Counted from the stretch's first letter, positions 21,870 to 61,290 are shown. The stretch: DNA of 64,000 nt from Caldisericia bacterium (GCA_963674785.1 OY771555.1:1632001-1696000), one strand, 5' to 3'. A program made the numbers and translations. Notes: generated by a model not told the origin, from the sequence alone.

Positions 21870-22050
21870 AGGTAACCTCCTTACCAAAAATCGACTAATT
21901 TTTCTGTATATTAGCACCATTTTATTCGACAATACAACTATGTTTTTTTCTATCGGTTAAACACTTTATAAAATAGACCTTGAACATTGTTTAATGATTT
22001 GGTATAAACTTCTTTCGTTAAAGATATGACGTGAGACAAGGAGTAGTAAC

Positions 22051-22284
22051 TTGTTTAAGATAATAATGATAACAATTTCAGTAGTGACAGGAATCGGGTT
22101 GACCGTTGGTTACCTTCTCCAGTCACCAAAGGCATCCGGTCTCGGAGCAATTGGTGGAACAGCTCACCAGTTCAAAATGAGATCAGGTAGAGATGCCTTT
22201 TATGATAAACTTATTGTTTGGTGTGCGGTTATTTTTGGGATTTCAATCTTCCTCCTTTCCATTTGGAATCCAGCAATTTGGTGA
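22051..22284 (+). CDS. secG: Preprotein translocase subunit SecG
   Basis: Two TMs around LLQSPKASGLGAIGG; followed by tRNA-Leu, a common arrangement; AAGGAG SD with TTG start. Confidence 0.88.
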   Translation: MFKIIMITISVVTGIGLTVGYLLQSPKASGLGAIGGTAHQFKMRSGRDAFYDKLIVWCAVIFGISIFLLSIWNPAIW

Positions 22285-22310
22285 TTGAATAACTGATTTT
22301 TTTTAAAAGT

Positions 22311-22395
22311 GCCGAGGTGGCGGAATTGGTAGACGCGTACGTTTAAGGTGCGTATGTCCAGCGACGTGGGGGTTCGAGTCCCCCCTTCGGCACCA
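22311..22395 (+). tRNA. tRNA-Leu (anticodon AAG)
   Basis: Acceptor GCCGAGG/CTTCGGC+ACCA; anticodon stem TACGT/GCGTA with loop TT-AAG-GT (anticodon 22345-47); long variable arm; T-arm GGGGG-TTCGAGT-CCCCC. Confidence 0.93.
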
Positions 22396-22417
22396 CTTTT
22401 TTTCATCAACGAGATTC

Positions 22418-22492
22418 GGGCGGATAGTTCAGCGGTAGAACGCTTGCCTTACACGCAAGAAGTCACAGGTTCGAATCCTGTTTCGCCCACCA
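22418..22492 (+). tRNA. tRNA-Val (TAC)
   Basis: Acceptor GGGCGGA/TTCGCCC+ACCA; anticodon arm CTTGC-CTTACAC-GCAAG; TTCGAAT T-loop. Confidence 0.96.
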
Positions 22493-22512
22493 CTTTCAAG
22501 CTTTCCCTTAAT

Positions 22513-22537
22513 CGATCCATTTTTGGGTCGTTTTTTT
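22513..22537 (+). terminator. Terminator after the secG-tRNA-Leu-tRNA-Val unit
   Basis: CGATCCA-TTTT-TGGGTCG followed by T7. Confidence 0.7.
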
Positions 22538-22675
22538 ATTTATGGACTTTTTAACAGAAATCTTTTTCAATTACTTATCACTAAAACTTTCCTGTTCGAT
22601 TAACCCCAAAAATCTATCTATTTCTTAAAATAATATCTTGGATGCAGGCGTTGATGATATATTTTTGAAAGTTAA

Positions 22676-22703
22676 TTGACAGTAGAATTCAATTCGCTAG
22701 AAT
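22676..22703 (+). promoter_or_regulatory. Sigma70-type promoter for tRNA-Asp
   Basis: TTGACA, 16 bp, TAGAAT, ending 17 bp before the tRNA. Confidence 0.75.
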
Positions 22704-22720
22704 TCTATTTCGTTATTTGC

Positions 22721-22796
22721 GGGGTCGTGGTGTAGCGGTTAACACGCCAGCCTGTCACGCTGGAGATCGGGGGTTCGATTCCCCTCGACCTCGCCA
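22721..22796 (+). tRNA. tRNA-Asp (GTC)
   Basis: Acceptor GGGGTCG/CGACCTC+GCCA; anticodon arm CCAGC-CTGTCAC-GCTGG. Confidence 0.96.
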
Positions 22797-22880
22797 TCTA
22801 ACAAATGACTCGTTTCTTAAGAACCCAAAACCCTTGAAACATTATTTTATTTGTATAGTTTTTTATTTTGGAGGTTCTGT

Positions 22881-25800
22881 TTGAAGAAAAGAGTTCTCGT
22901 TTCAATAGCGATAGTAATTTTTGCCCTCTCGGCACAGTTCCCAGTCTTGCTCGCAAGTGATCATGTCGAATATGTTGACGTCCTTATTACGCTCAACGGA
23001 CCATGTGTTTCAAATCTTTTGCCGAGTAATTACACTGACTCTAATTCTCGATTGTTTGATAAAAATGTTTTCATAACTTCGGATATGATTTCGGATTCCG
23101 TCTCATCTTTTGTAAACTCTTATGATTTATATTTCGATGAGGTGTACCAAGGTTACTCCATTTTGATGAGGGGTTTCTCCTGCAGAATTCAGAAAAGAAA
23201 TATCAATAAGATTCAAGAATTAGTGGCGGTTTCATCGGTTTTAATTCTGCCCGAATACAAACTTGATCTGGATACTTCCGTTCCAGTGATTAAAGCTGAT
23301 CAGGTTTGGGACATGGAAAACGATTTTGGTGAACATATTGATGGAACTGGAACAAAAATTGGAATCATAGATTCAGGTCTGGACTATACAAATCCTGATT
23401 TGGGTGGTGGTGCTGGACCAGGAAGAAAAGTTATCGAGGCATATGATTACGCTGATAATCTCGACGTTGCAAGAGACGGGCAGAACCACGGAACCCATGT
23501 TGCAGGAATCTGTGCTGCAGATGGCAAAGTAAAAGGTGTTGCTCCAAAGGCAAATCTAGTTGCTTTCAAAGTTTTTTCATCAGAAGGCAGACGAACGAAC
23601 GTTGGTGCAAATATCATAAAGGCTCTTGAACAGGCTCTCCTTTCAAAATGTGATGTTGTCAATCTATCTCTTGGTTCAATAGCTACTGACCCAGGTACAG
23701 ATGCTGATTCAATTTACAATAATGCTGTTGATGCCGGAATGGTTATCTGTGCATCGTCAGGCAATAATGGAGCAAGAGCACCAGGGAAAGGTTTTCCAAT
23801 CGGTTATCCCAGCAGTATTGAATCAGTGATTTCTGTTGCTGCATCGGACGATTCATTGAAAATGTTTGGTGAAGTGATTGAGCCTGATGATGTAAATATC
23901 AAATTTGAGATAATGCCTTTCGTTTTATCACCCGAATGGATAGGTGGAGAATTTGAGATTGTGGATTGTGGATATGGAAACTCTGAAGATGATTTTGCTG
24001 GTAAGAACCTTAAAGGGAAAATTGCACTGATCCAACGAGGTGGTGTTTCAAATATTGAATCTGCTTATTTCAAATACAAGGTTATTAATGCTGGAAAAGC
24101 TGGAGCATCTGCGTGTATAATCTATAATAATAGATTTGGTGGTTACAATAATGTTGCATTAACTGTACCTGATGAAGAAAACAATAAAGATGATCGATTT
24201 CTTGTTCCAACCTCTTCTATGTCAAACCTTCAAGGCGAGGAGCTGTTGAGGTTAATGGAAAAAGGAACCTGCAAAATATTGGTGTCCGTGGGTAAACAAA
24301 CTGATTCAATGGCTTATTTTTCATCTTCTGGTCCAAGTTCCTTGATTGGTTTCAAACCAGATGTTGCAGCACCAGGCGTTAATATCTACAGCACACTGAG
24401 GACAGAAAAAGAAGATACTCCTTCGTGGGGGTATAAGAATGGCACATCGATGGCTTGTCCTCATGTCAGTGGTGCTGTTGCTCTTATAAAACAGGCTTAT
24501 CCTGATGCCTCTCCAATTGAGGTTAAATCACGGCTTATGGGAAGTGCAACTTTATTGTGGAACGATATGGCAAACGAGTATCTTCCTCTAACGATGCAGG
24601 GAGCCGGAAGAATTGACATAAAAAAAGCAATTGAAACCGAGTCAATCTTTTCCCCGCCCGGTGGTGCTGTAATTGCTGATTACAGCGGTAAGGCTGAGTT
24701 TGAGTTTTCCATTCATAACCTCTCCTCTAAAAATCAGAGTGTTGAGCTTTCTTATTATTCCATCGGTAGAGATACAGAAGCAGAATTTGAGTTTGATCGT
24801 TTATCTATTAAACCCCGTGGAATTGTAAACTCGACAGTAAAGATAAGCTGTACAAATGGGATTGAAGGGATTCTTGAGGGGGTTATTTTTGCAGAAATAA
24901 ATGGCGAAAAGATCCATCTCCCATTGATGATTCAACATCAAAGCAGTTATTTGCCTCCTCAGCTATCGTATCTTAGAGTCACTGATAACAACCATCTTGA
25001 TGTATCAAATGATGATTCTGAGGTTTTTTTAACGTTTAAACTCAATTATGGAAGCTTTATTACTTCGATCGACAGCCCCGGTGATTTTATAACAAGCACG
25101 TTTGCTGCTGCAAAAATTGGTACTATTAATGATGAAAAAAAAGAACTTGGAACGATACTGTACGAAGATTACATTCCAATCGGATATTATCACATACCAT
25201 GGAATGGAAGAGATATTGCTGAAAGCTTAATTGCTCATAATGGAAAAAATCGAATTCAAGGTCAGGGAATAAGAACGATCGAATATAACAATGGTGAAGC
25301 CCCAACGGTTATCCAGCAACGACCAGCGGCAGCAACGATTGTTAATGTAGAAGGGTCGCCGTTATTAGAAACCCAAAATATTGGAATCCTGCTGGCACCT
25401 GAAAAACCTGGTTTAAACGATGATTTTGAGATCAGAATTTATTTATCAGAAACGGTTGGGGTTAGAGAGTTTGATTTTGAGTTAAACTACCCTTCCGAAT
25501 TTATTGAGATTGTAGATATTCATCCAGATAGAATCTTTGGTGACTCCGGAAGGTTAAATTTTGAAGATAATAAAACCAGAAATAAGTTGATTGTTCACGT
25601 TGAAACCGATGAAGACATGGTCGATTGGCATAAAGGGACAGCGATTTCAATCCTCGCAAAAATGATAAAAACCTCTGATAACATCCTACCTATGGGTTTT
25701 CTTTCTGCATCAGTATTAATTGATTATGACCGAGTTAAACTTCCGTTATCCCACTTCCTTATAAGAAACATACCAAAGATAAGCTGTTTTGACTTGAATG

Positions 25801-25961
25801 ATGATAATGTTGTAAATATTATCGATTTTGCTATACTTTCAGAGCATGTCGGTTCTTTCAAAGGTCAGCCATTGTACGAAAGTGCGATGGATTTTGATTT
25901 AGATGGAAGGATTGATTTTTACGATGTCTCTATTTTTGCAAAAAGAGTGACATCTGAGTAG
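22881..25961 (+). CDS. Secreted S8 (Vpr-like) subtilase with PA domain, C-terminal cohesin-like and dockerin domains
   Basis: Triad IGIIDSG / HGTHVAG / GTSMACPHVSG; oxyanion SSGN; PA domain KGKIALIQRG; dockerin FDLNDDNVVNIIDF...MDFDLDGRIDFYD. TTG start behind GGAGG. Confidence 0.92.
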   Translation: MKKRVLVSIAIVIFALSAQFPVLLASDHVEYVDVLITLNGPCVSNLLPSNYTDSNSRLFDKNVFITSDMISDSVSSFVNSYDLYFDEVYQGYSILMRGFSCRIQKRNINKIQELVAVSSVLILPEYKLDLDTSVPVIKADQVWDMENDFGEHIDGTGTKIGIIDSGLDYTNPDLGGGAGPGRKVIEAYDYADNLDVARDGQNHGTHVAGICAADGKVKGVAPKANLVAFKVFSSEGRRTNVGANIIKALEQALLSKCDVVNLSLGSIATDPGTDADSIYNNAVDAGMVICASSGNNGARAPGKGFPIGYPSSIESVISVAASDDSLKMFGEVIEPDDVNIKFEIMPFVLSPEWIGGEFEIVDCGYGNSEDDFAGKNLKGKIALIQRGGVSNIESAYFKYKVINAGKAGASACIIYNNRFGGYNNVALTVPDEENNKDDRFLVPTSSMSNLQGEELLRLMEKGTCKILVSVGKQTDSMAYFSSSGPSSLIGFKPDVAAPGVNIYSTLRTEKEDTPSWGYKNGTSMACPHVSGAVALIKQAYPDASPIEVKSRLMGSATLLWNDMANEYLPLTMQGAGRIDIKKAIETESIFSPPGGAVIADYSGKAEFEFSIHNLSSKNQSVELSYYSIGRDTEAEFEFDRLSIKPRGIVNSTVKISCTNGIEGILEGVIFAEINGEKIHLPLMIQHQSSYLPPQLSYLRVTDNNHLDVSNDDSEVFLTFKLNYGSFITSIDSPGDFITSTFAAAKIGTINDEKKELGTILYEDYIPIGYYHIPWNGRDIAESLIAHNGKNRIQGQGIRTIEYNNGEAPTVIQQRPAAATIVNVEGSPLLETQNIGILLAPEKPGLNDDFEIRIYLSETVGVREFDFELNYPSEFIEIVDIHPDRIFGDSGRLNFEDNKTRNKLIVHVETDEDMVDWHKGTAISILAKMIKTSDNILPMGFLSASVLIDYDRVKLPLSHFLIRNIPKISCFDLNDDNVVNIIDFAILSEHVGSFKGQPLYESAMDFDLDGRIDFYDVSIFAKRVTSE

Positions 25962-26024
25962 CAAGATTGGAAATAGTGCAAACTTTGGTTATAATGGTTG
26001 GATACATAAGCTCAAGGAGTTGAG

Positions 26025-29000
26025 ATGCGAAGGAAACTGACTTTAGTCCTTGTATTGTTTTTGGTTTTTTCGGTTGCAACAGTTTCTGTTCAAGGAGTCA
26101 ATCCCGGTGAATCTGATGAGTTGGTACGAGTTGTTGTTACGTTCGACGAATTCAGATCGGTTGATTCCAATCAGGAAATCCCAGGTCTCGGTGATATCGT
26201 TCATTCGAATAGCCGTGCCGTTGTAGCACTTTATGAAGATGAGCTCGTCGCTAGATTTCCTGAGGTGGCTATCAGACATAAAGTTGACTTCCTGTTTCCC
26301 GGTATTTCTATGGATGCAAAAGAAGATATCGTATCATCTGTTTCCTCTTTACCTTTTGTTGCAGATATTTTTACAGTTTCTGACTATGTCCCAACCGGAA
26401 ATTTTGATCCTAACCAGATAATAAACGCTAGTGCTGTATACGATATGGTGGATTCTTCAAACGTTTCAGTTAATGGTTCTGGAATCCTTGTAGGTGTTAT
26501 TGATAGTGGAATTGACTACAATCATAAACATCTTGGAGATGGCATTTATGGTGAGGCCGGCAAGGTTGTTGGCGGAACAAACTATGTTGAAAGAGGCGAA
26601 GAACCTGTTGATGATTCACCGATTTGTCATGGAACAAGTGTTGCTGGTCTTATTGCTGCAAGCAGGGACTCTGTTTCAATCGCCTCGGGTGCTAAGCTTA
26701 TGTCTTACAGGGTTTACTCGAACAAAAATCCTAAAGTTTCTGAAGATACTATTGTTAAAGCGATTGACCAGGCGGTTAAAGATGGTTGTCAAGTTATCAA
26801 TGTTTCACTCTCCACTCCCGGTGGTGACTCTTCAAAACCATCTGCGGTTGGAAAAGCAGTGAATAAAGCTTTGAATTCTGGAGTCGTAGTTGTTGGTTCT
26901 GCTGGGGAATTTGGTACTTATTGCAACCACTCTGACAAGGGAACTGTTGGCGGTGCTGGGTTATCTACAGATGCCATTTCAGTCGGAGCAATGGACTCAA
27001 GACCAGGTTTTAAGATTTTGATTAACGATGAACTTTATGTAAATGCAATGGCCTCCACTCCATATTCAAAATTTAGCACAGGCAAAGGAATGCAACTTGT
27101 TGATGGGGGTTATGGTTCAGAAGATGAACTGAGCTCCGTTTCCATGCGCGGGAAGATTGTTTTGGTTGAGCGTGGTCCATCGATTGGAAGATCGATTCCT
27201 TTCTATAAGAAAATGCTTAACGCCAAACGTAAAGGTGCAGAGGGTGTGATTTGTTGGAACGATTCACCTGGTGAACTCGTTAGTATGCAAGTTGGATATG
27301 ACTATGAGCTTGGCAACGACGTAAGAGACAAAGACATGATTCCAACGTGTTTTGTGTCAAATAAAGACGGAGAATTGTTAAAAAGGTTAGTGCTTCAGGG
27401 TGAGGTTAACTTATCTATTGACGAAATGAATTTTGACACAATAACTCGAACAACCTCTATTGGACCTGCTGAAGACTTAACCTTTAAACCTGATGTTTGT
27501 GCACCTGGAATGGGTCTAACAGCTCCCCTTTCAGTTTCCGTTGGATCCGGTGATATACCTTATACCGTTGGTTTTAATGGAACATCTGCGAGTACCGGAA
27601 TTGTTTCGGGTGCAGCAGCTCTTCTAAAGCAATATCATCCTGAATGGACACCTTCACAAGTAAGGCTTGCCTTGATGAATACATCTGTTCCAGTAAGAAA
27701 CCTTTCAAACAATAGCTATGCTAGTTTTTTAATTCAGGGGGCCGGAAGAGTTAATGTTGATGCGGCTGCCAATATTTCTGCATTTATTTCACCTGGTGGT
27801 GTTATTGCCAAACCAAATGAAAAGATTACCCTTGATGTTGAGGGAATCGGTTCGGATACCACATTCAATGTGAGCATCGAAGTTCCCGAGACATTGTCAG
27901 AATATGTTGAATTTGATATTTCAGCAGAATCCGTAAAGGTTGAGTCTGGAAGTGCTGCAAGCCTTGATATAACTCCATATTTTAATCAGAGCAAAATGCC
28001 ATGCAATATCGAGTGTGTTGTTTGGTTTGAAGCAGGTAGCTCAAAACTTCATGTTCCCCTGATCTGTTGGAAAGAATTTAGTTCGGTTTCCAGATCGGGT
28101 TTTACTGGCTTACAGGTTGCTGGTGATAAGATCGATTATAATGCATCAGGCAACGAGATATCCGTTGATTATAACATCGCTCTTGGTGATCTCTATAGTT
28201 ATAAACCATTTGCCTATGGTGAGTATGGTAGCTCAACTGAGGAAACTGATACAAACCAAACGATTCTTTCAAGGTGTCAGATCGATTTGGTTGATGGCAA
28301 CAATGATTCTTGGATATCTATTTCTCAGTGCGAAAATGCCGAATATGGTAACTATCGAGTTTCCTGGGATGGCTTAGACCCTGTAACTGGTGATCAAATT
28401 CCAAATGGAGATTATAAGATCAAACTTACTAGAGTTGAATCTAGGGTTCAGGAATCTGGAAGTTTTGGTGGCTATATAGAATCAATTACCGCTGAACAAC
28501 CAATCAAGATTGTTGGAAGCAAAGTGCCATCTCCACCAAAGTTTGTGCTCTATTCCAGACCCGGTAATCCTTCGATTGAACAAAAATTTATCATCGATCT
28601 CTACCTTACCAATGCAAGAGATGTATCTAGTTTTAGTATGGATATTGTTTACCCGACAGATGAAATCGAAATTCTTGATGTAATCCCTGGTGATTTTATG
28701 GGTTTGGATGGTGTTGCGGTTGAGGATGATATGTTCAACGAAGAAGAAGAGGGAAAGATACGACTCTTCTCTAAACGAATGGGTGAAAGTGGTATAAGTG
28801 GACATGGTCTGATTGCAAGGTTTGTAGCCAGATGTGACGATGTCGTTTACCCAACGATTGGCTACTCATCTAAACGTCTTTTGGACTCAGACGGTAATTT
28901 GATTAGACATATGAGTTATCCGTTAGAACTTGAGATTACTGAAGATGAATTTGTTGAAGGCGACCTTAATTTTGATGGCGTTGTTGACGGATATGATGTG

Positions 29001-29135
29001 CTAATTTTTGCACGTTCTTTTGGTTTAACAACGAGACATCCTGATTATAACATTGTAGCGGATATTAACGACGACGGAAGGGTCGACCAGAAAGACTATA
29101 AAAAATTGATAGCCAACTTTGGCAAACATAACTAG
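26025..29135 (+). CDS. Second S8 subtilase paralog (PA, cohesin-like, dockerin) with a divergent active-site context
   Basis: VGVIDSG / HGTSVAG / GTSASTGIVSG; SAGE in place of SxGN; dockerin GDLNFDGVVDGYD...ADINDDGRVDQKD. Confidence 0.9.
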   Translation: MRRKLTLVLVLFLVFSVATVSVQGVNPGESDELVRVVVTFDEFRSVDSNQEIPGLGDIVHSNSRAVVALYEDELVARFPEVAIRHKVDFLFPGISMDAKEDIVSSVSSLPFVADIFTVSDYVPTGNFDPNQIINASAVYDMVDSSNVSVNGSGILVGVIDSGIDYNHKHLGDGIYGEAGKVVGGTNYVERGEEPVDDSPICHGTSVAGLIAASRDSVSIASGAKLMSYRVYSNKNPKVSEDTIVKAIDQAVKDGCQVINVSLSTPGGDSSKPSAVGKAVNKALNSGVVVVGSAGEFGTYCNHSDKGTVGGAGLSTDAISVGAMDSRPGFKILINDELYVNAMASTPYSKFSTGKGMQLVDGGYGSEDELSSVSMRGKIVLVERGPSIGRSIPFYKKMLNAKRKGAEGVICWNDSPGELVSMQVGYDYELGNDVRDKDMIPTCFVSNKDGELLKRLVLQGEVNLSIDEMNFDTITRTTSIGPAEDLTFKPDVCAPGMGLTAPLSVSVGSGDIPYTVGFNGTSASTGIVSGAAALLKQYHPEWTPSQVRLALMNTSVPVRNLSNNSYASFLIQGAGRVNVDAAANISAFISPGGVIAKPNEKITLDVEGIGSDTTFNVSIEVPETLSEYVEFDISAESVKVESGSAASLDITPYFNQSKMPCNIECVVWFEAGSSKLHVPLICWKEFSSVSRSGFTGLQVAGDKIDYNASGNEISVDYNIALGDLYSYKPFAYGEYGSSTEETDTNQTILSRCQIDLVDGNNDSWISISQCENAEYGNYRVSWDGLDPVTGDQIPNGDYKIKLTRVESRVQESGSFGGYIESITAEQPIKIVGSKVPSPPKFVLYSRPGNPSIEQKFIIDLYLTNARDVSSFSMDIVYPTDEIEILDVIPGDFMGLDGVAVEDDMFNEEEEGKIRLFSKRMGESGISGHGLIARFVARCDDVVYPTIGYSSKRLLDSDGNLIRHMSYPLELEITEDEFVEGDLNFDGVVDGYDVLIFARSFGLTTRHPDYNIVADINDDGRVDQKDYKKLIANFGKHN

Positions 29136-29147
29136 GAGTGATTGAGA

Positions 29148-32100
29148 ATGAGAAGATTTTTGAATTTAACGTTGGTTTTTATGCTGATTTGCACGCTCTC
29201 TTTTGTAGGTGTGTATGCAAGCTCAGTTGATGAGAGTGATTTTAAAACTGAGATGGTTTTTGGAGTTATGGAAGATGATTATGTTGGTTCATTTATGCTC
29301 TTCCCGCCAAACACTGTTGAAAGAGATTACACTTCTGCATTCTATTTTCCAATGTGCGGAATGACCGTGACAATGGATGACAAGCTTTTGCTTGCCGATA
29401 CTCAGTATGGAAGAATCCATGTCTATGATTCTGATTTGGGTCATCAAGATTCGTTTGGATCTCTTGGTTATGGTGATGGAAAACTGAACTACCCAGTTGA
29501 TATTGCCGAAGATGACGAAGGAAATCTTTATATTGCAGATTTCTTCAATATGTATATCGCAAAGTTTTCTGCCTCTGGTGAATTTCTTGGAAGATTTGGC
29601 ACTGAGGGCGATGAAAATGGTCAGTTCATAGGACCGGGCGGAGTCGCTGTTGACTCTGATGGTTATATCTATGTTTCCGACTGCACAACAGGAAGAGTTC
29701 AGAAATTTGATAGCAGTTTCAATTTTGTAAAACTCTTTAACAGTGGAGATGGAGAAATTGCTCCACTTTCTTCCCCTGGCGCAATTAGAATTGGTTCGAA
29801 TGGAAACGTCTATGTTGCAGAGATGTCAAGCGGTCAGATTTATATCTTTAATAAAAACGGAGATTATATAAGACCTGCTCTTAAAAAAGGCGATGAGTCA
29901 ATTTCAAAATGCGGAGTTTTTGAGATCGATGGTTCAGGTAAGTTTTATATACATGACAGGGCACCAGCATCAAAGATTGTAAGAGTTTTCGATGCAAGTG
30001 GTAATTTTGAGAGTTCATTCCAGAATGTCTTTAGTTCAGATGTTATGTCAGACGGATTTGCTCTTGCAAATGATGGTACTATGTTCCTTCACTCATATGG
30101 TACACCAGTGCCAGGTGCAGATTTTAATCCTGAAAGTCCATTTATTTGCGGAAATTCTATGGAACTTGTTCATGTTAATGAATCTGGAAAAAAAATTGGA
30201 TCATCAGAAATATTTGATCCAAAAGAGTATGGACGAGCTGGTGACATGACCGATTGCGCAGTTTCACAGAGTGGTAAAGTCTATGGTTTATCGACCAGTA
30301 TTGTTGATTCGTCATTGATAACAGAGAGCAGAATCTTTGTGTGGGATCAAGATGGGGATTTACTTGATGTCCTTTCACCAGACGATTTTGAATTGAGCTC
30401 TGATTCAAGCTTAACTTCAATCGCCCTTGATTCTTTTGACAATGTTTTTGTTGGGGCGCTGGAAGAAAATATTGGCAAAATTCTAAAACTTGATATTGAA
30501 TCTGATAAGATTTCTGAGATTGGTGCAGATTTTGTAGGTTCACCTGAATCAATTGCGGTTGATAGAATGGACAACATATATGTTGCTGACTCGACAAGGT
30601 CTTCGGTTTTGGTTTTTACTAATGCTGGAAGATTTAGAAATGAGTTTAAATTCAACTTTAGCCCAAGATCTGTTGATGTTGACGAGTTTAGAAATGTCTG
30701 TGTTTCTGCGGAAAACCAGATTGTTGTAATTAATAGAAAAGGTAGAGAGATTGCCGTTTTTGGTGGACAAGGTAGAAGAGAAGGATCGGTCTATTACCCT
30801 GAGGGAATCGCGTTTACAGCTTCAGGCGACATTATTGTTTCCGATACTGAAAACTGCAGACTTCAGATTTTCTCAAAATCTGAAGGATCATCCTATGAGT
30901 TTAATTCTTCCTCAAAAAGAATGCTTGGTCTTTGTAAGGGTATTGCTTGGGGTAGTGACAATATGCTTTATGTGGCCGATGGATTCCATGGCGTTGTGCA
31001 TAAGGTATCAATTGATGGTCAGGCTGGACCTGCATCAGGTGAAGGTGAAGGCTCAGAGCCACCAGTGCCACCAGAGCCACCAGAAAATGAGACAATTCTT
31101 TCTGATGGAGAAATCATTTTCAATCCAGAGGATGTAAAGATTCAGTCTGGTTCAATTGCAGAAATTGACATCAAGATTGATTTTGCCTCAAACGTTTTTG
31201 GGTTGGGAATGACCGTTAAATATGATACTTCGTATCTTAAGCTTGAGGATTGTAAACCTGGTGATTTCCTTTCATCAGATGGAAATGAAAATCTCTTCCA
31301 TTTTACTGATTCACCTTTGGGAACAATCAATATCGCAGGTCCAACAAGAACAGGTGTTGCAGGTGGAATGAATGGAACCGGAACCCTCATTAAACTTAAA
31401 TTCTCTGGTGTTAACGAAGGAGATACTGTAATCGAGCTTGAGGATGTGATCGTTAAAGATCCACACCTTAACAATATCCAAGTTGTTACTAAACCATGTG
31501 ATGTCGAGGTTATGGCAATGGATGCTCAGCCTCCTGAGATTAGTGTCGAAGTTCCAGCTTGTTCATACTCAACTGACTATGTTTTAGAAGGAAAAACAGA
31601 GCGAGGCGCAAAACTTCAGATTGAGATTAATGGAAAAAAATCTGATATTTCGGTCAAACCAGATGGATCGTTCTCTTACAAGATGACTCTTGGGAATGGC
31701 GACAATAAATTCAAACTAATCGCAACAGATAGCGCTGGAAACAAGTTTGACGACGAATACACTATCAATCTCAGACCTAGAAATGTTATTATAATGTGGG
31801 TTGGAAAATCAGATTATATTTTTGGTAGCACACCAGACAAATTTGAAGTTCCTCCACAGATTATCGATGGTTCAACATATGTCCCACTTAGAGCCCTTGG
31901 TGACCTCTTAGGTTGTCAGACCGATTGGATTGGTGACGAAAGAAAAGTTATTTATACTTATGTTGATCCATGTACATCAAGTAAAACTGTCCTTGAAATC
32001 TGGATTGGAAAACAAGTAGGAAAAAAGAATGGACAAACCTGGGACATGGGAAAAGCACCTCAGATCGTGAATGGAAGATCATTGGTTCCTCTTAGAGCGA

Positions 32101-32177
32101 TCTCAGAAGGTCTTGGTGCAGATGTTGGTTGGGAAGGCGCAACAAAGAAAATCACAATCACTCACCCAAAACAGTAA
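29148..32177 (+). CDS. Secreted NHL-repeat protein with cohesin, Ig-like and stalk domains
   Basis: NHL repeats (PVDIAEDDEGNLYIAD; PGGVAVDSDGYIYVSD); Pro-rich linker; cohesin VKYDTSYLKL..PGDFLSSDG..GTGTLIKLKF; stalk STYVPLRALGDLLG...SLVPLRAISEGLGADVGW. Confidence 0.88.
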   Translation: MRRFLNLTLVFMLICTLSFVGVYASSVDESDFKTEMVFGVMEDDYVGSFMLFPPNTVERDYTSAFYFPMCGMTVTMDDKLLLADTQYGRIHVYDSDLGHQDSFGSLGYGDGKLNYPVDIAEDDEGNLYIADFFNMYIAKFSASGEFLGRFGTEGDENGQFIGPGGVAVDSDGYIYVSDCTTGRVQKFDSSFNFVKLFNSGDGEIAPLSSPGAIRIGSNGNVYVAEMSSGQIYIFNKNGDYIRPALKKGDESISKCGVFEIDGSGKFYIHDRAPASKIVRVFDASGNFESSFQNVFSSDVMSDGFALANDGTMFLHSYGTPVPGADFNPESPFICGNSMELVHVNESGKKIGSSEIFDPKEYGRAGDMTDCAVSQSGKVYGLSTSIVDSSLITESRIFVWDQDGDLLDVLSPDDFELSSDSSLTSIALDSFDNVFVGALEENIGKILKLDIESDKISEIGADFVGSPESIAVDRMDNIYVADSTRSSVLVFTNAGRFRNEFKFNFSPRSVDVDEFRNVCVSAENQIVVINRKGREIAVFGGQGRREGSVYYPEGIAFTASGDIIVSDTENCRLQIFSKSEGSSYEFNSSSKRMLGLCKGIAWGSDNMLYVADGFHGVVHKVSIDGQAGPASGEGEGSEPPVPPEPPENETILSDGEIIFNPEDVKIQSGSIAEIDIKIDFASNVFGLGMTVKYDTSYLKLEDCKPGDFLSSDGNENLFHFTDSPLGTINIAGPTRTGVAGGMNGTGTLIKLKFSGVNEGDTVIELEDVIVKDPHLNNIQVVTKPCDVEVMAMDAQPPEISVEVPACSYSTDYVLEGKTERGAKLQIEINGKKSDISVKPDGSFSYKMTLGNGDNKFKLIATDSAGNKFDDEYTINLRPRNVIIMWVGKSDYIFGSTPDKFEVPPQIIDGSTYVPLRALGDLLGCQTDWIGDERKVIYTYVDPCTSSKTVLEIWIGKQVGKKNGQTWDMGKAPQIVNGRSLVPLRAISEGLGADVGWEGATKKITITHPKQ

Positions 32178-32216
32178 ATAGTGATACCCCTTAAATTGGG
32201 TGCCACTTGAAATAAT

Positions 32217-32257
32217 AAAAACCGAGGATAACTTTTTCGTTGACCTCGGTTTTTTTA
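32217..32257 (+). terminator. Hairpin terminator after the protease/NHL cluster
   Basis: AAAAACCGAGG...CCTCGGTTTTTTT. Confidence 0.7.
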
Positions 32258-32275
32258 TAGGAAGAAGGTGGATCA

Positions 32276-33501: not shown

Positions 33502-36500
33502 CTACGGCTCCATCTTCAATGTCATCGTAATAGTCTTTGTTGCACCATCCCATCCAACCTCTGCTCCAAGTGCCTCAGCAATAAACCTAAATGGTAACAT
33601 TGTAGAACCTGAAACAATCTGAGGTGCTGGACTAACCTTTCTAGATTCATTATTAACCATAGCATCCTCAGAGTTTACATAGAGTATAATAGTTGAATCA
33701 CCAAGAGTAATAATAACAGACTTAGTAGAAGCAACCCATTCAACTTCAGCACCAAATGCCTCAGATACAGCCCTTACTGGAACCATAGTGCTTCCAGAGA
33801 TAACTGTTGGAGGAGGATTAATACTTTTATCTTCACCAGATACTGTCATCACATTAGAACCAATCTGCATAGTAACAACTAACTCATAAAGGTTTGTAAC
33901 AGAAATACTTGTCCTTGTCTCATTATCGGACATATCCGTTGCTATCACTTCAAACTCATTGATGCTTGGAGCTGCTTCGACTGGGACGGATACTTTGTAT
34001 ATATATTTTTCTTTATCGGATGTTCTCTCTCCAACCCCTTTTCCGATAACAATCAAGCATGGTTCGTCAACCTCAATTGTTACTTCAAAAGATTTTGCAT
34101 TTTTAATGACCTTTTCAGCACTGATATCTTTGATCTTTGGTTTTACTGTGTCTGGAGGGGTTGTAAAGCTCACAGGCACAACAAGTCTTCCACCTTTTCT
34201 CCATTCAAGGATTATTTTCCCGTTGTATTTTTGACCATAGAGCAGACCACTTGTGTTGACTGAGAAAGAAACCTCATTATTTGATTTGTCTTGTACGGTT
34301 ATTTCTTTTGTCTCAATTTCTAACCAAGCAGCATCGCATGAGGCGGTTATGTCTAGCCATATATCTGCTGTGTTATTGATCGAAAGCTTATCTTTGAAGT
34401 CATAAGTTTCGCCAACCTCTAGTTCTCCCAGATCAAATTCATTTGGGCTGACCATTGGCCCCTTAGTTTGTGCTCTGACCCAAATCTCTGAGCTTCCATA
34501 ACTCCAATCAACAATTATCTTTGCTTCAAGAGTCGCACCCAATGTAAGCTCTTTTTTATTGACCTTGAGAAGCAACAAACCAGATCCTTTTCTGATAAGG
34601 CTGAATCTGTCATGATCAAGTTTAAGCCATTTGCTTTCGCATTCAAGTCTAACCTTTATTGGTCTAACAGAGCGGTTTTTAAACATTATTTCCGTCTCGG
34701 GTTCATCTTCTGAATCAAGCAATCCAAAATCAATTTTCTCTATGAACTCGGGTGATATTCTGTCAACAACCTTTACGGTTACGACTTCTTTTGCATCCCT
34801 ATGTTGAATATAAACATAGCATTTTCCAGTTCCTTTTGCGGTGATCACTCCATTTGTATCAACTGAACATATGTTGTCGTTTGAGGATGCAAAAGAAACA
34901 ATTGGGTCGGCAATCTTGTATCCATTTTCATCAATAACTGCTGGCTCGAGTTGATATGTATCATCCAATTCAACTCCGACACTTTTACTTGGAATATCTA
35001 TCTTTGTTGGTTCGCCATATGGAATCCCTTTGAATTTGTAAAGAATATGTTTGCCATCAACATTTTTATTTTTTTGCGTAACAATTAGAAATCTACCATT
35101 CGTAATAATTGGTTCAGCACGAGAGTAACCTAATATTTTCTTTTCCCATGTTTTTTCACCAGTTTTCCTGTCAACTCTATACAGAAGAGTTTTTCCTTCA
35201 TTATTGGCTCGAGCAGTTATGTACAGACCATATTTTGTTATTAGGGGTGGTGCATAGATTGGATAGGTCTTTTCAAAGTGTCTGTGTTTCCATAAAACTT
35301 CATTATCGATAATATCGATGTTATAAATTTCACCATCTTCAGTTCCAAAATAAAGGTTATTCCCAAAAATTGAAAACTCTCCCACTGTTCCTACAATTCT
35401 TTTTTTCCATAATAAATTACCCGTTTCTATGTTAATTACATGGATATCTGATACTCCGCTATCTGGGTCATCTTCAATCAAATGTTTATTGCATAGAACA
35501 ATATAATTCCCATTAGAAACCATATAAGAATAATTGACAAATGGATAGTTCCAATTTTCAATTCCGCTTGATTTGCTTATGCTTTTTACATATCCATTGT
35601 AGCCATCGTCCATGTGGTCAAAAATAACAGCATCTTTTGTTGTAATGGGGTGTGTCCAAATTGTATACCTTGTTTCTCTGTCAGTGAAAAGATTAGATAG
35701 TTCTTTTGTTTTTACATTAAATCTATAGAATTCATTGTCAAATGAAAAGAAGATATTATCACTACTAATTGTTAATTGGGGATTACCGATAAATGTAGAA
35801 GTATTAAAAAATCGGCTTGTGAGTTTCTTGTAGAATACTTCTCTTCCTGTTTTTAGCTCCAAGCATTTTATTCCTCTCATGCAACCAAAATAAATCTTAT
35901 CGTCTGATCTTACGATTCCACCCAAGTATCCAAGCCATAAATCTTCTGTCTTCCATCGGTGAGCTCCGTCATCAAAATTTAAGCAGTGTAAATCAAAGCC
36001 ATGGAGAATAATTTTATTATCAAAACAGTATATGTGGTTTATGAATTTATATTGATCATCATACCAATCGTAGGTGATCTCAAAGTCTTTTGACCATTCT
36101 TTTTCTAGTCCTGGTGCATTTATTGAACACTCAAATGGCACGGTGTTTGAGTTATTATTGTCGTAACCAAGTTCATTCCATCCCTCGCATTCATCAAAAT
36201 TCTCCTCCTCCAAGTCATCGATTTGATTTATATAAGCTCTTACGCTGATATTTCTTTTGATGTCGCCTGTTTTTACTGTAATTAATCCAGCTAAGAGGTT
36301 CGAGTCATTTGGAGTGCTTCCGTAGCTGATCGAGGTTTCAATAGTTTTTTTATCCCCTGGTTTAATTGTAAAGGATGTGGATGTAAGTTTTATCCACGGT
36401 TTATCAGGAGTCAATCGGTATGACTGTTTCTTTTCTGTGTCGTTTTTAAAAGTTATCTCTTCGTAAATGTTATCTCCAAGTTCAATACTTCCAAAGTTTA

Positions 36501-37722
36501 CGGTTGATGGATAGATACTTGAGACCTCGTAACACTCGATATCACCTTTTGTTGAGATTGTGTAAACTTTTTCATTTGCAACAATTGGATTTGATGCATG
36601 TGGATTTATCGAGTCGGTTTCCCAGTATACCTCACCAGTTTTTTTGTCACATACCATCATTGTTGTATCAGAAACTGTGTATAGGAAGTTATCGGTTACG
36701 GTCGGACTTCCAACTGGATACCTGGATTCTGTTTTCCAAACTAGTTTTCCGGTGTCTTTGTTTAGGCAAGAGAGGTGATAGATATCAAACATTGAATAAT
36801 TAAGAGATTTTTCATTACATCCTGTGTAGAAGTATACATGATCATCGTCGATTGTTGGAGATTTATAAATCCCAATATCTGTATCGAATGTCCAGTTGAT
36901 TGAGCCATCTTCAGCGCTCAGGGAATAAAGTCCGCCTTTGTCTGATCCAACGTAGATAATATAATCATTGAATGTAATTTCTGATCCAAATTCTTCTAGG
37001 TTTACCCTTTTTTTGGATGTCCAATTATTCTTTCCGCTATCTGCGTGTATGCTTCTAACGAAACCATTTGTATCAACAAAAAAAATGAATCCATTTGTAC
37101 AAATCAATGGTGCATCTGAACACTCGAAGTCTTGAATCCACTTCTTTGTGCCGTCTTTTGCAGATAAACACCCAATATAACCCTCTGAATTATTGAAGAA
37201 AAGATTTCCATTCGAATCAATTATCGGATCACTTGAAAACTTATATTCCGAACTGTAAATCCAAGAGACCGCGCCATTACTGGAGTCAAAACCAACTATG
37301 ACATTGTTTTGTGCTTCTGTTTCGTTGTGCGAAGACCCAATGTAAGCGGTTGTTTCATCAAAGTAGACACCTGAAGAAAACCAGTCACAGTAAAATGGAA
37401 ACTCAGTTTTCCAAACTTCTTTTCCGCTTTCAGAGTCAATACAAACTGAATTAATTTGTTTTGATCCGATTTCATGTGTTAAGGAGTAGATTTTTTTATT
37501 TGCGATAATCGGCGTCTTCTGGTTTGTTTCACCATTATTTGAGTACCATAACTGAGATAGTTCCGCAATCTCTGGGCCACACTTTATGTATGGATTTCTG
37601 CTCCCATTGTATCCCGACATTATCCATTCACAGCTATTAGTTTCCGCAATTGTAGGATTATTCTGAATTACGACAATTGAAAGCAAGAGCACGAAACTAA
37701 GTAAAATTCTTGATATTTTCAT
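33502..37722 (-). CDS. Large secreted double PQQ-like beta-propeller protein with Ig-like/BACON-like and stalk domains (paralog A)
   Basis: Signal peptide after GGAGG SD; two propeller blocks; Big_2-like FASSNDNICSVDTNGVITAKGTG; stalk STMVPVRAVSEAFGAEVEW. Confidence 0.87.
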   Translation of the reverse strand: MKISRILLSFVLLLSIVVIQNNPTIAETNSCEWIMSGYNGSRNPYIKCGPEIAELSQLWYSNNGETNQKTPIIANKKIYSLTHEIGSKQINSVCIDSESGKEVWKTEFPFYCDWFSSGVYFDETTAYIGSSHNETEAQNNVIVGFDSSNGAVSWIYSSEYKFSSDPIIDSNGNLFFNNSEGYIGCLSAKDGTKKWIQDFECSDAPLICTNGFIFFVDTNGFVRSIHADSGKNNWTSKKRVNLEEFGSEITFNDYIIYVGSDKGGLYSLSAEDGSINWTFDTDIGIYKSPTIDDDHVYFYTGCNEKSLNYSMFDIYHLSCLNKDTGKLVWKTESRYPVGSPTVTDNFLYTVSDTTMMVCDKKTGEVYWETDSINPHASNPIVANEKVYTISTKGDIECYEVSSIYPSTVNFGSIELGDNIYEEITFKNDTEKKQSYRLTPDKPWIKLTSTSFTIKPGDKKTIETSISYGSTPNDSNLLAGLITVKTGDIKRNISVRAYINQIDDLEEENFDECEGWNELGYDNNNSNTVPFECSINAPGLEKEWSKDFEITYDWYDDQYKFINHIYCFDNKIILHGFDLHCLNFDDGAHRWKTEDLWLGYLGGIVRSDDKIYFGCMRGIKCLELKTGREVFYKKLTSRFFNTSTFIGNPQLTISSDNIFFSFDNEFYRFNVKTKELSNLFTDRETRYTIWTHPITTKDAVIFDHMDDGYNGYVKSISKSSGIENWNYPFVNYSYMVSNGNYIVLCNKHLIEDDPDSGVSDIHVINIETGNLLWKKRIVGTVGEFSIFGNNLYFGTEDGEIYNIDIIDNEVLWKHRHFEKTYPIYAPPLITKYGLYITARANNEGKTLLYRVDRKTGEKTWEKKILGYSRAEPIITNGRFLIVTQKNKNVDGKHILYKFKGIPYGEPTKIDIPSKSVGVELDDTYQLEPAVIDENGYKIADPIVSFASSNDNICSVDTNGVITAKGTGKCYVYIQHRDAKEVVTVKVVDRISPEFIEKIDFGLLDSEDEPETEIMFKNRSVRPIKVRLECESKWLKLDHDRFSLIRKGSGLLLLKVNKKELTLGATLEAKIIVDWSYGSSEIWVRAQTKGPMVSPNEFDLGELEVGETYDFKDKLSINNTADIWLDITASCDAAWLEIETKEITVQDKSNNEVSFSVNTSGLLYGQKYNGKIILEWRKGGRLVVPVSFTTPPDTVKPKIKDISAEKVIKNAKSFEVTIEVDEPCLIVIGKGVGERTSDKEKYIYKVSVPVEAAPSINEFEVIATDMSDNETRTSISVTNLYELVVTMQIGSNVMTVSGEDKSINPPPTVISGSTMVPVRAVSEAFGAEVEWVASTKSVIITLGDSTIILYVNSEDAMVNNESRKVSPAPQIVSGSTMLPFRFIAEALGAEVGWDGATKTITMTLKMEP
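33503..33987. repeat. 485-bp direct repeat, copy 1 (stalk-domain coding region)
   Basis: Reads identical by eye to 37940-38424 (offset 4437). Confidence 0.92.
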
Positions 37723-37889
37723 GATTCCTCCGATTTGATGTTTTGAATCAAACAATTCTTATGGGGTTGGATGCCTTGAGTTAAAATATCCACGAATGAT
37801 AAATATACACAAAATGACTTAAAACTCAACATTTATCACCTGAAAGTTATAAGCTAATTGTAAACAAATTTTAAAATCTCCCAACTGGA

Positions 37890-37919
37890 CTACCCTGGGA
37901 GGCAATCCTCCCAGGGTAG
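37890..37919 (-). terminator. GC-rich hairpin downstream of paralog B
   Basis: CTACCCTGGGAGG-CAAT-CCTCCCAGGGTAG; U-tract weak. Confidence 0.65.
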
Positions 37920-37938
37920 AAATTATTACTATCTTCTC

Positions 37939-40900
37939 TTACGGCTCCATCTTCAATGTCATCGTAATAGTCTTTGTTGCACCATCCCATCCAACCTCTG
38001 CTCCAAGTGCCTCAGCAATAAACCTAAATGGTAACATTGTAGAACCTGAAACAATCTGAGGTGCTGGACTAACCTTTCTAGATTCATTATTAACCATAGC
38101 ATCCTCAGAGTTTACATAGAGTATAATAGTTGAATCACCAAGAGTAATAATAACAGACTTAGTAGAAGCAACCCATTCAACTTCAGCACCAAATGCCTCA
38201 GATACAGCCCTTACTGGAACCATAGTGCTTCCAGAGATAACTGTTGGAGGAGGATTAATACTTTTATCTTCACCAGATACTGTCATCACATTAGAACCAA
38301 TCTGCATAGTAACAACTAACTCATAAAGGTTTGTAACAGAAATACTTGTCCTTGTCTCATTATCGGACATATCCGTTGCTATCACTTCAAACTCATTGAT
38401 GCTTGGAGCTGCTTCGACTGGGACAGTTGCTATATAGATGTACTCTGATCTATCTTCATCTTCAACAGGATCCTTTATGGTAGGATCTGTTATTTCATCA
38501 GATGGCTCTATCTCATCATTTTCATCAATTGGTTCCTCGACTACCTCATCAGGATCAGTATCTTCAGATTCATCGTCCACGTCTTCTTCCTCGACCGTTT
38601 CCTCATCGGGTTCAGCCAGTGGGTCAATCGCCTCGATTTCACCGACCATCACAACACAAGGTTCGTCAGTTGTTATTCTTATTTCACATTCGGATGCGTT
38701 TACAAGTTCTCCAACTTCAATATCAATAATTTCAGGTGAGACATCATCGGGTGGAGTAACAAAAGTTATTGGGATTTCGATGTGTCCACCTTTTCTCCAA
38801 GACAAAACGACATTTCCATTATAGGTTTTTCCAAGTTTCAGTCCCTCTGTGTTTATGGAAACTGAAAGTTTTTCGTCTTTCATTTTTTCGAGTGTAAACT
38901 CTTCTGGTTTAACTGTTAACCATGGAGCATCTGTGTCTGCAGTTACGTCTACCCATATTGATGCAGTATTGTTTATAAGGATTGAATCTTCAAAATCAAA
39001 CTCTTCATTAAGTCTAAGTTCTTCAAGCTCCAATTCATTTGGACTAGCTTGTGGTCCTTTGGTTTTTACTTTTACCAGAACCTCAGAAGTCCCATATCCC
39101 CAGTCGACACTAATCTTTGTCTGAAGTTCGGCACCCAATGTAAGCTCTGTGCTTTCAAGACTTAAAACCAGCATTCCTGAACCTTTGCTAATCATCTTGA
39201 ATTTATCATGATCAAGAGAAAGCCAACCACATTCGTTTTCAAGTTTGACTGTGATTGGTTTAATAGATTTATTTTGGATTACCAATTCTATCTGTGGGTT
39301 TTCATCAACATCTATTAGACCAAAATCAACTTCTGTTTCGAATTCTGGATCGATTTCAGCAACTACCTCAATGCTAACCGTGGTTTTTACGGTTCCAATA
39401 GTTATGGTTATCTCGCAAGTTCCAACTGCTTTTGCTTCAATTGTTCCATCTTCGGAAACTGTACAGATTTCTTCATCGCTTGATTCAAAAATGAGTTCAG
39501 GATTAGGAATAGTGTAGCCATTTTCATCTTTTACACTTAAATCAAGAGCAAGTGTGTCTTCAATCTCTATTGTTATTTTTTCTTCATCAATTTTAATCTC
39601 AGCAGGATCACCGATTGGTGCACCTTTGAAGTTATAGATTCTTTGAGAGCCTTCACCTTCAGTCATTACCAAAACCCTGCCGTCGGCAATAGCAATATTT
39701 CCGATTGGTTCACCTTTTAATCTGTCATACTTCCAAGTAACATCTCCCATTCTTTCAATATCAAGCCTATAAATGGTAGAAAAATCATCATCTTCATTTG
39801 AAGCCGCAACAAATAGACCTCCATTTGTCACAATGCAGTCTAGCTGTATAGTTCCGCTAAGATGTTTTTTCCATTTTACAACATATTTATCTAGTGATGT
39901 ACAAATCACATCGCCGTCATGTGTTGCAAACATTAGTGCATCCTCAGTTACTGCGAAAGAGCTATATATCTCGGATTTGAACTCAGTCTTCCATACTTCT
40001 TTTTTTGTTTTAATATCAAGGCATGCGATTGTTGAGTTTTCGATTTTTCCATTCTCAAGCTCTTCATCGGTTCTCTTTTTTGCCTTGTTAACAAACAGAT
40101 ATTTTTCGTTCGCGGCTAATCCTCTATACATGTAATCATCTGATTCATTGAGAGACCATTCTTTTTTATTAGTTTTTTTATTCAAGCAAATCGTATCACC
40201 ATTATTGCTTATGATAATGTACTTATCGGTGACTATTGGGTGTGTTTCTAAAACGAATGCATCTTCGTCGGTATATATCAATTCTGCTTCTTTGCTAGAG
40301 GTTGGCATGGCGTATAAAGAGTTTTCAAAGGTGAAGTATATAGTATCATCAAATACTGTCGGTTGAGGTTGGGTATATATTGTGGTAAAGTTGAAGAGAT
40401 CATCGTTGATGATTTCTTCGAAAGTTTTCCTTCCTGTGTCTTGGTTAACGCTGCTTATCCCCTCAGGTGTTCCAAAGTAAATGCTACCATCATGCCTTAC
40501 GATAGAACAATCCTCGGCAAGCTCCTCTTCGGTTGTATTCCACCTTTTCTTAAATGTTTGAAGATTGTGGCAATACAAGTCTTCTCCTCTAAGAACAATC
40601 TTGTTATCGAAGGCATAGACATTCCTAATCTCATCTTTTGTGTTTATCTTCTGCTCCCACTCAAGATCTAAAACAGGTGAAATTGGAGCACATGGACTGT
40701 CAATTGAGTTTGAGTCGTAACTGTCTGAGTTAAGCTCATTCCACCCGTCACATTCTGTGAAATCTCCTTGTGAGCCGTCATCAGGTCTCTTGATATAGGC
40801 GTCAACACTTATATCTTTTGAGTTCCCATCCCATTTAACCGTGATTTTTCCGTATAAGATGTTTTCATCCTTAGGAATTCTATCATAATCAAGTGTAACA

Positions 40901-46572: not shown

Positions 46573-46587
46573 GAGATACTCCCTTCC

Positions 46588-48672: not shown

Positions 48673-48690
48673 ATAAAATTCCTTCCTTGG

Positions 48691-61238: not shown

Positions 61239-61290
61239 ATTTCCGTCCAATACTCTATATACCATAATAAAACAGTCAAGTGAGCAAAGC

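Follow-up and report, generated by a model that had tools for sequence, protein, structure and literature searches.

Non-cellulosomal cohesins and dockerins are widespread, and their partners and jobs are mostly obscure. Several described systems lie close to the one considered here. OlpC of Clostridium/Acetivibrio thermocellus and ScaG of A. cellulolyticus and A. clariflavus are single-cohesin anchors with a PF07833 domain, and in OlpC this domain is reported to bind secondary cell-wall polymers (PMC4582956, PMC3413522); the scaffoldin classification of PMC11557425 names copper-amine-oxidase-like domains. In the Ruminococcus bromii amylosome, single-cohesin proteins are combined with an enzyme that ends in a cohesin and then a dockerin, Amy4, whose cohesin binds its own dockerin, and a single-cohesin wall anchor, Sca2, also takes peptidase dockerins (PMC4611034). 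In the X-module/type II dyad, the dockerins of CipA and ScaA directly follow a seven-stranded beta-sandwich and pair with the wall-anchored cohesins of SdbA and ScaF; dockerins bind the 8-3-6-5 face of the cohesin, and a crown helix is described for type II cohesins (PMC5141474). The 'planctosome' hypothesis for freshwater Nemodlikiaceae (Planctomycetes) proposes from genomes a surface degradation of polypeptides by cohesin-dockerin pairs, with a lamin-tail protein as anchor, M12B and M14 peptidases and an adaptor protein (PMC6461901). Here, we analyse a window of 64,000 nucleotides (positions 1,632,001-1,696,000 of a 2.23-Mb single-contig Caldisericia genome, completeness 92%) with an operon of two S8 proteases, S8-1 and S8-2, each ending in a cohesin-like domain and a dockerin (Coh-Doc), and a third protein that carries NHL propellers, a cohesin and a stalk domain. 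A search whose range ended before subscription papers and supplements (e.g. the cohesin tables of PMC11557425) returned no published account of a cohesin-dockerin system in Caldisericia.

The three co-oriented genes, delimited by open reading frame (ORF) calls, are listed in Table 1. Pfam and profiles built from the same genome bear out the arrangement given in the original prediction, two S8-Coh-Doc genes followed by an NHL-cohesin-stalk gene that lacks a dockerin. All three proteins start with a basic-hydrophobic signal-like peptide and are thus predicted to be exported. The third protein is ordered as signal peptide, NHL propeller region, acidic/Pro linker, cohesin, immunoglobulin-like (Ig) domain and PF07833 stalk, and Pfam calls NHL, Cohesin (24.4 against a cut-off of 24.1), Glucodextran_B Ig and Cu_amine_oxidN1 in it. 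We consider it probable that this operon encodes a monovalent, calcium-dependent, non-cellulolytic cohesin-dockerin tether of hydrolases to the cell wall. By homology with OlpC, the NHL protein would hold the wall through its C-terminal stalk, while its single cohesin would capture the dockerin of the co-encoded S8 protease in a calcium-dependent manner, so that one protease per anchor would be positioned beside the NHL propellers, as a complex model suggests; that the propellers present the substrate is a guess. The cohesin-fold domain of the protease would brace the dockerin and space it from the catalytic domain in the way of an X-module. S8-1, C25 and M6-like peptidases, esterases and PQQ-type propellers would plug onto some member of a set of about nine stalk proteins with a single cohesin. 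Dockerin and stalk would serve as alternative tails for indirect and direct wall attachment, and the likely purpose would be to break down polymers, protein among them, at the cell surface.

Structure prediction and sequence comparison both point to genuine cohesins in this operon. AlphaFold models of the NHL cohesin and of the S8-2 Coh-Doc tail reached predicted local distance difference test (pLDDT) values of 90.7 and 94.8, respectively. The NHL cohesin matched 5nrk best (Z 17.9, root-mean-square deviation (rmsd) 1.9, 132 aligned), with cohesins in the first 20 rows of the fold search and the first non-cohesin at Z 10.0; the S8-2 cohesin matched 4dh2 best (Z 17.8, rmsd 2.0, 132 aligned; first non-cohesin at Z 11.6), and this OlpC cohesin is among the top fold matches of both models. 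When a profile of the NHL cohesin was compared with solved structures, 35 of 35 matches were cohesin-bearing chains, the best being the Archaeoglobus cohesin 2xdh. By these models, the two domains are true nine-stranded cohesins, and the generic Ig fold, which the original prediction had named as a refuting outcome, is ruled out for both by the fold and sequence matches. No type II crown helix was seen, as neither modelled cohesin holds a helix of at least four residues; both are about 135 amino acids (aa) long, and type I and archaeal cohesins rank first among their matches. The best sequence matches of the dockerin are of type II (2y3n_B at 5e-18, 3kcp, 2b59_B and 4u3s_B), above those of type I. 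Given the missing crown helix and the type II-like dockerin, the pair therefore combines a cohesin of type I/archaeal-like character with a dockerin that resembles type II. No X-module was found upstream of this dockerin, the preceding domain of S8-2 being the cohesin fold itself. Among 79 distinct dockerins, both calcium loops (Asp1, Asp/Asn/Ser5, Asp12) are kept in all 79, and the helices are seen in the model.

A complex of the NHL cohesin, the whole S8-2 Coh-Doc tail and two calcium ions was then predicted, a pair prediction that the original prediction had called for. The S8-2 dockerin was placed on the NHL cohesin with a complex score of 0.72, as against 0.01 for the best of three controls; of solved pairs, 116 of 157 attain the 0.72 mark, and of mismatched ones 2 of 215, a calibration that holds roughly for a run with its own alignments and calcium. 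The runs agreed in 100% of contacts with a partner pLDDT of at least 91, and the confident partner contacts lie entirely in the dockerin, mostly in helix 1, despite the S8 cohesin being offered as well. On the NHL cohesin, the contacts comprise F30, G31, G33, E60, L62, H64, T66, N74, A76, G77, T79-V83, I114, K116, P118 and L120. Seven of the 10 stalk-enriched columns of the top 12 fall into this modelled interface, the column ranking predating the model.

The cohesins borne by stalk proteins and those preceding dockerins differ in their conservation. Between genera of family f1, one of five Caldisericia families compared (f1 to f5), identity amounts to 51% for the NHL cohesin, 44% for its propellers and 37% for its Ig domain, and to 41% and 18% for the cohesins of S8-2 and S8-1, respectively (S8-1 catalytic domain, 46%). 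In f1, the 8-3-6-5 face of the NHL cohesin is better conserved than the opposite face (0.64 vs 0.28, p 0.005), the faces having been drawn after seeing the conserved columns and with two columns judged structural omitted. The corresponding values for canonical and opposite face in five S8 cohesin groups are 0.26/0.38, 0.10/0.18, 0.16/0.14, 0.12/0.18 and 0.11/0.17. A strand-3 Gly is present in 44 of 57 stalk-borne vs 8 of 74 dockerin-side cohesins, and it follows a Tyr in 32 and 0 of these, respectively, counts in which kin sequences are non-independent and p-values overstated. A quick cohesin tree of few columns, used as a hint only, splits the stalk-side from the dockerin-side cohesins with a Shimodaira-Hasegawa-like approximate likelihood-ratio (SH-aLRT) support of 92, with exceptions.

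These patterns bear on how the Coh-Doc tail is to be understood. If its cohesin were a second receptor, Coh-Doc enzymes could stack (e.g. S8-1 on S8-2 on the NHL anchor) and take up hydrolases that have only a dockerin, forming a chained 'peptidosome'. In its class-wide, cellulase-free form, which needs no multi-cohesin scaffold, single-cohesin stalk anchors would start chains, Coh-Doc enzymes (S8, PQQ-type propellers) extend them and dockerin-only peptidases or esterases end them, and the gene order S8-1, S8-2, anchor would mirror the chain; we regard this joint claim as unlikely. It could draw on the full cohesin fold of the S8-2 domain, on the Amy4 precedent of R. bromii (PMC4611034), on the fall in conservation along the gene order, which is expected if S8-1 caps the chain, and on tandem arrays of three to four S8-Coh-Doc genes that lack an adjacent anchor (L077, L078). 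The cohesins of PQQ-Coh-Doc proteins also show a tendency to a conserved face (0.39 vs 0.28, p 0.19; 0.32 vs 0.10, p 0.05). Chaining is nevertheless unsupported, because the S8 cohesins lack a conserved dockerin-binding face: in all five groups the canonical face is no better conserved than the opposite one, no group is enriched at the modelled interface, the invariant residues of the S8-2 cohesin lie on strands 2 and 9, off the canonical face, and the strand-3 Tyr is absent from the dockerin side. Judged by its position and conservation, the S8 cohesin is more likely an X-module-like brace of the dockerin, and reuse of a cohesin fold to stabilise a type II-like dockerin, in the place of an X-module, is more likely than the chained complex.

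Gene neighbourhoods suggest that dockerin and anchor belong together. In the present genome, a dockerin gene lies directly beside a cohesin-stalk gene in 2 of 10 cases (0.22 expected, p ~0.01) and within five genes of one in 5 of 10 (0.91 expected, p ~0.0005), the expectation being obtained by shuffling the cohesin label among stalk genes and two of the five near genes being the tandem S8 pair, hence non-independent. Across the phylum, Pfam dockerins occur in 80 of 93 genomes (80 of 84 within the class, 0 of 9 outside it) and cohesins in 75 of 93. Forty neighbourhoods were taken, mostly around the best S8-2 matches, a query-picked and biased sample with S8-Coh-Doc loci from 28 genomes; in it, 23 loci have S8-Coh-Doc immediately ahead of NHL-Coh-stalk. 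These represent 21 of the 28 genomes and 4 of the 5 families, and the gaps run from -53 to +16 base pairs (longest-ORF starts). The adjacency is found in 10/10 genomes of f1, 4/4 of f2, 5/5 of f4, 2/5 of f5 and 0/4 of f3. Nearly every matching f2 genome has one Pfam dockerin and two cohesins, and in the four genomes sampled these are the operon. In one f4 operon (L056), a C25-dockerin gene is inserted between the S8 and NHL genes, and the cultured Caldisericum exile holds two operon copies (BAL81672/BAL81671 and BAL81004/BAL81003). A second pair is found as well: a Coh-stalk gene lies directly upstream of a PQQ-Coh-Doc gene in 13/13 loci sampled and in the present genome, in an operon of a SpoIID-type gene, a cohesin-Ig-stalk gene and a PQQ-propeller-Coh-Doc gene; in f5, the SpoIID domain is fused onto the cohesin-stalk protein of this pair.

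The two conserved pairs argue against a reading without any binding in trans, in which Coh-Doc is a calcium-stabilised tail, or binds a surface other than a cohesin, the cohesins are spacers and genes of secreted proteins simply cluster. Cohesin-like domains in stalk proteins that lack the receptor signature (4250-9475, C25-Coh-stalk, PQQ-Coh-stalk) would suit that reading, as would the separation of the genes in f3 and the variability of the recognition helices in many dockerins (in 15 of 79 dockerins, a crude score rates no helix as clearly hydrophobic). It is at odds, however, with the retention of two separate Doc-gene/Coh-stalk-gene pairs across families, with a neighbourhood that exceeds the shuffle among stalk genes, with the better conservation of the NHL cohesin than of its flanking propeller and Ig domains and with the confident dockerin-cohesin interface of the complex model, and we consider it improbable, the least likely of the alternatives.

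Several observations nonetheless weigh against the monovalent tether, besides the retrospective drawing of the cohesin faces. Cohesin-dockerin is a textbook pair, and the complex model may pass by likeness to solved structures of that kind. In f1, the modelled interface is conserved at 0.60 vs 0.50 for the rest of the domain, core included (p 0.18); interface conservation is significant in f3 alone (p 0.005, 3 sequences), and the interface is the less conserved part in f4B and in the f1 group of Coh-Ig-stalk proteins (0.30 vs 0.47). Face conservation is significant in one of six stalk-cohesin groups and reversed in two, and the Tyr-Gly motif is missing from both f5 NHL partner cohesins. In family f3 both genes are present but not linked, the NHL-Coh-stalk gene lying elsewhere in the genome, and three of the five f5 genomes show no adjacency at the loci sampled. 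Furthermore, S8-2, with its changed oxyanion residue, may be a weak protease, attenuated or specialised.

The number of cohesins per protein bears on the cellulosome-like scaffold that had been proposed. Among 134 cohesin proteins, a count of the present genome plus all sampled loci, some of which overlap, 75 also carry a dockerin and 58 a stalk, the remaining one being truncated at a contig end; dockerin and stalk never meet in one protein (0/83 dockerin and 0/204 stalk proteins). With relatives covered at the sampled loci, no multi-cohesin scaffold was found among the 134 save one probable artefact, and the proposal of a cellulosome-like scaffold is therefore unsupported. The artefact is a 2092-aa double S8-Coh-Doc frame (L052:4482-10760), rejected as a two-cohesin protein and ascribed to a probable assembly error because it has one extra C in a C run compared with L050 and the signal peptide of the second gene inside. 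S8-Coh-Doc genes are multiplied to many copies in f1 and f5. Both for the NHL protein and for the S8-Coh-Doc tail, the full-length relatives among the matches listed mainly bear Caldisericia-type names where they are named. Precomputed Pfam accessions place Coh-Doc-like tails or a cohesin on other protein types (P0208, P0209, P0210), which we take to be multiheme-cytochrome-type proteins with Coh-Doc-like tails and a TIR-domain protein with a cohesin.

The original prediction had held every dockerin carrier of the window to be a peptidase, which stands for the window (3/3) but applies to just 5 of 10 carriers in the genome; protease-only loading does not stand, as esterases and PQQ-type propellers hold half of the dockerins. 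The 10 dockerin proteins comprise three S8, one C25 and one M6-like peptidase (the last assigned below the NCBIfam cut-off), together with three esterases of the BD-FAE type and two PQQ-type propellers, and 5 of the 10 lack any cohesin. Cohesins are found singly in 14 proteins, of which five also have a dockerin (one weak) and nine a stalk; the combination of a single cohesin and PF07833 in a secreted protein is thus met in the NHL anchor and eight others. No glycoside hydrolase (GH) domain occurs in the dockerin carriers (0/10), and GH9, GH5 and CBM3 were not found in the genome at its 92% completeness; a GH48 search ran without a positive control. From this carrier census and the missing GH9, GH5 and CBM3, the system is neither a cellulosome nor protease-only. 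For the C25 peptidase, described earlier as cohesin-like plus dockerin, the dockerin holds (E 1e-16 by local profile, though below the Pfam cut-off) and the cohesin-like part is weak (E 1.8e-4, local profile); C25 paralogues in the genome exchange tails, dockerin vs stalk. A search of the genome contigs with S8-2 gave one dockerin-only match, which is uninformative. Elsewhere in the genome, a cohesin forms the C-terminus of a protein that also has an internal stalk and PEGA domains (L001:2297-5476; G000:C1:288297-291476). Two genes away is a dockerin esterase, and the gene between them encodes a 966-aa protein that has no Pfam match.

Both proteases fit the S8 subtilase family, with Pfam S8 above its cut-off and Asp, His and Ser in order; Pfam calls S8, PA and Dockerin_1 in both (dockerins at 32.0 and 31.3 bits vs a cut-off of 22.9). 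Their cohesins were not called by Pfam on the proteins and are found by profiles from the genome and relatives (E 1.7e-20 for S8-1 and 3.4e-33 for S8-2), a profile that these domains helped build. In S8-1, the triad and the oxyanion Asn are intact (D174/H213/N305/S533, numbered from 22851), and the more hydrophobic recognition helix of its dockerin lies in the second repeat. The oxyanion-hole Asn plays a role in S8 subtilases; in S8-2, the D/H/S triad is intact and this Asn is replaced by Glu, with Asp in its nine aligned orthologues of f1, so that the residue is changed in all 10 S8-2 members and kept in the other 67 of 77 aligned S8 rows.

The stalk is by no means special to the operon, because some 122 proteins of the genome bear it: PF07833 gives 148 matches and is the commonest C-terminal tag of the secretome. 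Some ORFs hold several stalk copies. Its proposed role as a surface anchor gains by analogy from the published wall anchoring of OlpC and ScaG. Omp85 was not found in the genome, polysaccharide pyruvyl transferase and S-layer homology (SLH) proteins are present, and this envelope gene set would be compatible with an anchor on wall polymers. The second NHL protein of the window (4250-9475) was rightly described as NHL, cohesin and stalk in one protein that lacks a dockerin, Pfam adding an Omp28 domain; as an equivalent scaffold it is doubtful, because its cohesin lacks the receptor signature, and in the quick tree it groups with dockerin-side cohesins. In this protein, an Omp28-like domain separates the NHL repeats from the cohesin, in a genome where Omp85 was not found. 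The NHL region of the anchor matched only generic NHL propellers among solved structures and an NCBIfam scan of nine proteins gave no model above cut-off, so that no NHL substrate can be named. The genome also encodes many secreted proteins of 2000-4700 aa, several in tandem (e.g. G000:C1 686386-781660), and a 2741-aa stalk-tagged protein at 53079-61304 has nearly no Pfam coverage.

Such an abundance of stalk proteins, several of them 2000-4700 aa long, would suit a role in envelope upkeep, in which the docked S8 protease matures, trims or sheds stalk-tagged proteins within a general two-step route of wall display. The retention of the operon even in f2, where it has the sole Pfam dockerin, and the SpoIID-type domain beside or fused to the anchor of the second pair fit the same idea, and the altered oxyanion residue in all 10 S8-2 members hints at a specialised activity. 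However, S8-PA-Fn3 proteases of this type carry the annotation Vpr-like extracellular protease, a family of broad specificity, and the expansion of S8-Coh-Doc genes in f1 and f5, together with the same plug on other hydrolases, fits nutrient scavenging. We hold envelope upkeep to be rather unlikely, below chaining and above the absence of trans binding, and retain the tethering of hydrolases for digestion at the cell surface as the probable reading.

Table 1. Coordinates of the features discussed (window positions unless a locus is named).
Feature	Position	Strand	Description
S8 protease S8-1, 1026 aa	22881..25961	+	Signal peptide, S8 with PA insert, Ig-like middle, degenerate cohesin, dockerin
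Cohesin-like domain of S8-1	25383..25745	+	Own-genome and relatives profile; fast-evolving
Dockerin of S8-1	25776..25958	+	Pfam, local profile; both calcium loops intact
Promoter-like site	25967..25995	+	10/12 consensus, gap before S8-2; weak
S8 protease S8-2, 1036 aa	26025..29135	+	Architecture as S8-1
Cohesin-fold domain of S8-2	28545..28946	+	Directly abuts dockerin; predicted model
Type II-like dockerin of S8-2	28947..29129	+	Sequence matches, complex model
Putative anchor/receptor protein, ~1010 aa	29142..32177	+	Start 29142 TTG or 29148 ATG
Receptor-type cohesin	31116..31520	+	Conserved 8-3-6-5 face, strand-3 (Y/F)-G-x-G motif
Stalk/copper-amine-oxidase-N (PF07833) domain	31794..32165	+	Pfam
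Terminator-like hairpin and T run	32212..32258	+	z -4.1 vs shuffles
NHL + Omp28 + cohesin (5201-5590) + Ig + stalk protein, 1741 aa	4250..9475	-	Pfam cohesin 25.8
C25 peptidase, 728 aa	61868..64000 (runs to 64054)	+	Weak cohesin-like part 63479-63847, dockerin from 63860
Second operon	L008:1465-9721 (G000:C1:1335465-1343721)		Also L080, L081, L092-L102

For S8-1, the TTG start at 22881, which is preceded by a GGAGG site, is preferred over 22851. In the stretch 21932-22881, genes for tRNA-Leu, tRNA-Val and tRNA-Asp sit just 5' of the operon, and ahead of them lies a short ORF that presumably encodes a SecG-like protein. TATAAT is present in the gap before S8-2 in 5 of 8 relatives; neither the promoter scan (29 sites vs 31.0 in shuffles) nor the terminator scan (10 vs 7.5) showed an excess over shuffles in the window, and the hairpin downstream of the anchor gene was missed by the latter owing to its long loop. 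Further along, 33502-42333 encodes tandem proteins of 1417 and 1464 aa with PQQ-type propeller, Ig and stalk, and a protein at 9680-13459, one of just two SLH proteins found in the genome, combines SLH repeats with two stretches of the 5'-nucleotidase C-terminal type. The genes rpoB and rpoC are usually adjacent; here, an elongation-factor-G gene (46588-48672) lies between them on the same strand (42619-52890).

Taken as a whole, the locus represents a minimal two-gene cohesin-dockerin system kept across most families of one bacterial class, and the two operons of the cultured C. exile make protease tethering, pair specificity and stalk anchoring directly testable. If the tether reading is true, it would provide a concrete route of surface protein digestion for Caldisericia and a new pair of type I-like cohesin and type II-like dockerin for protein engineering. 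Since the parts and the principle are already known, the surprise is limited, and what would be new is a class-wide variant of hydrolase display in Caldisericia. Like OlpC and ScaG, the anchor combines a single cohesin with PF07833; unlike them, it adds NHL propellers and an Ig domain, and carries its stalk at the C-terminus. Its cargo would be a same-operon protease whose dockerin is type II-like, and neither cellulases nor multi-cohesin scaffoldins were found. With the R. bromii amylosome it shares the non-cellulolytic character, single-cohesin proteins and enzymes ending in cohesin then dockerin (PMC4611034), whereas protein would replace starch, a stalk the sortase anchor, and no conserved receptor face is seen on the S8 cohesins, in contrast to Amy4, whose cohesin is a proven receptor. 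As in the X-module/type II dyad, a type II-like dockerin directly follows a beta-sandwich, and the cohesin to which it is modelled to dock, by its 8-3-6-5 face, is predicted to be anchored in the wall (PMC5141474); unlike there, the preceding domain is a nine-stranded cohesin fold, and the receptor, which has no crown helix, resembles type I and Archaeoglobus cohesins rather than type II anchors. The idea of polypeptide degradation by cohesin-dockerin pairs at the cell surface is shared with the proposed planctosome (PMC6461901), which differs in its phylum, its lamin-tail anchor, its peptidase families and its adaptor protein.

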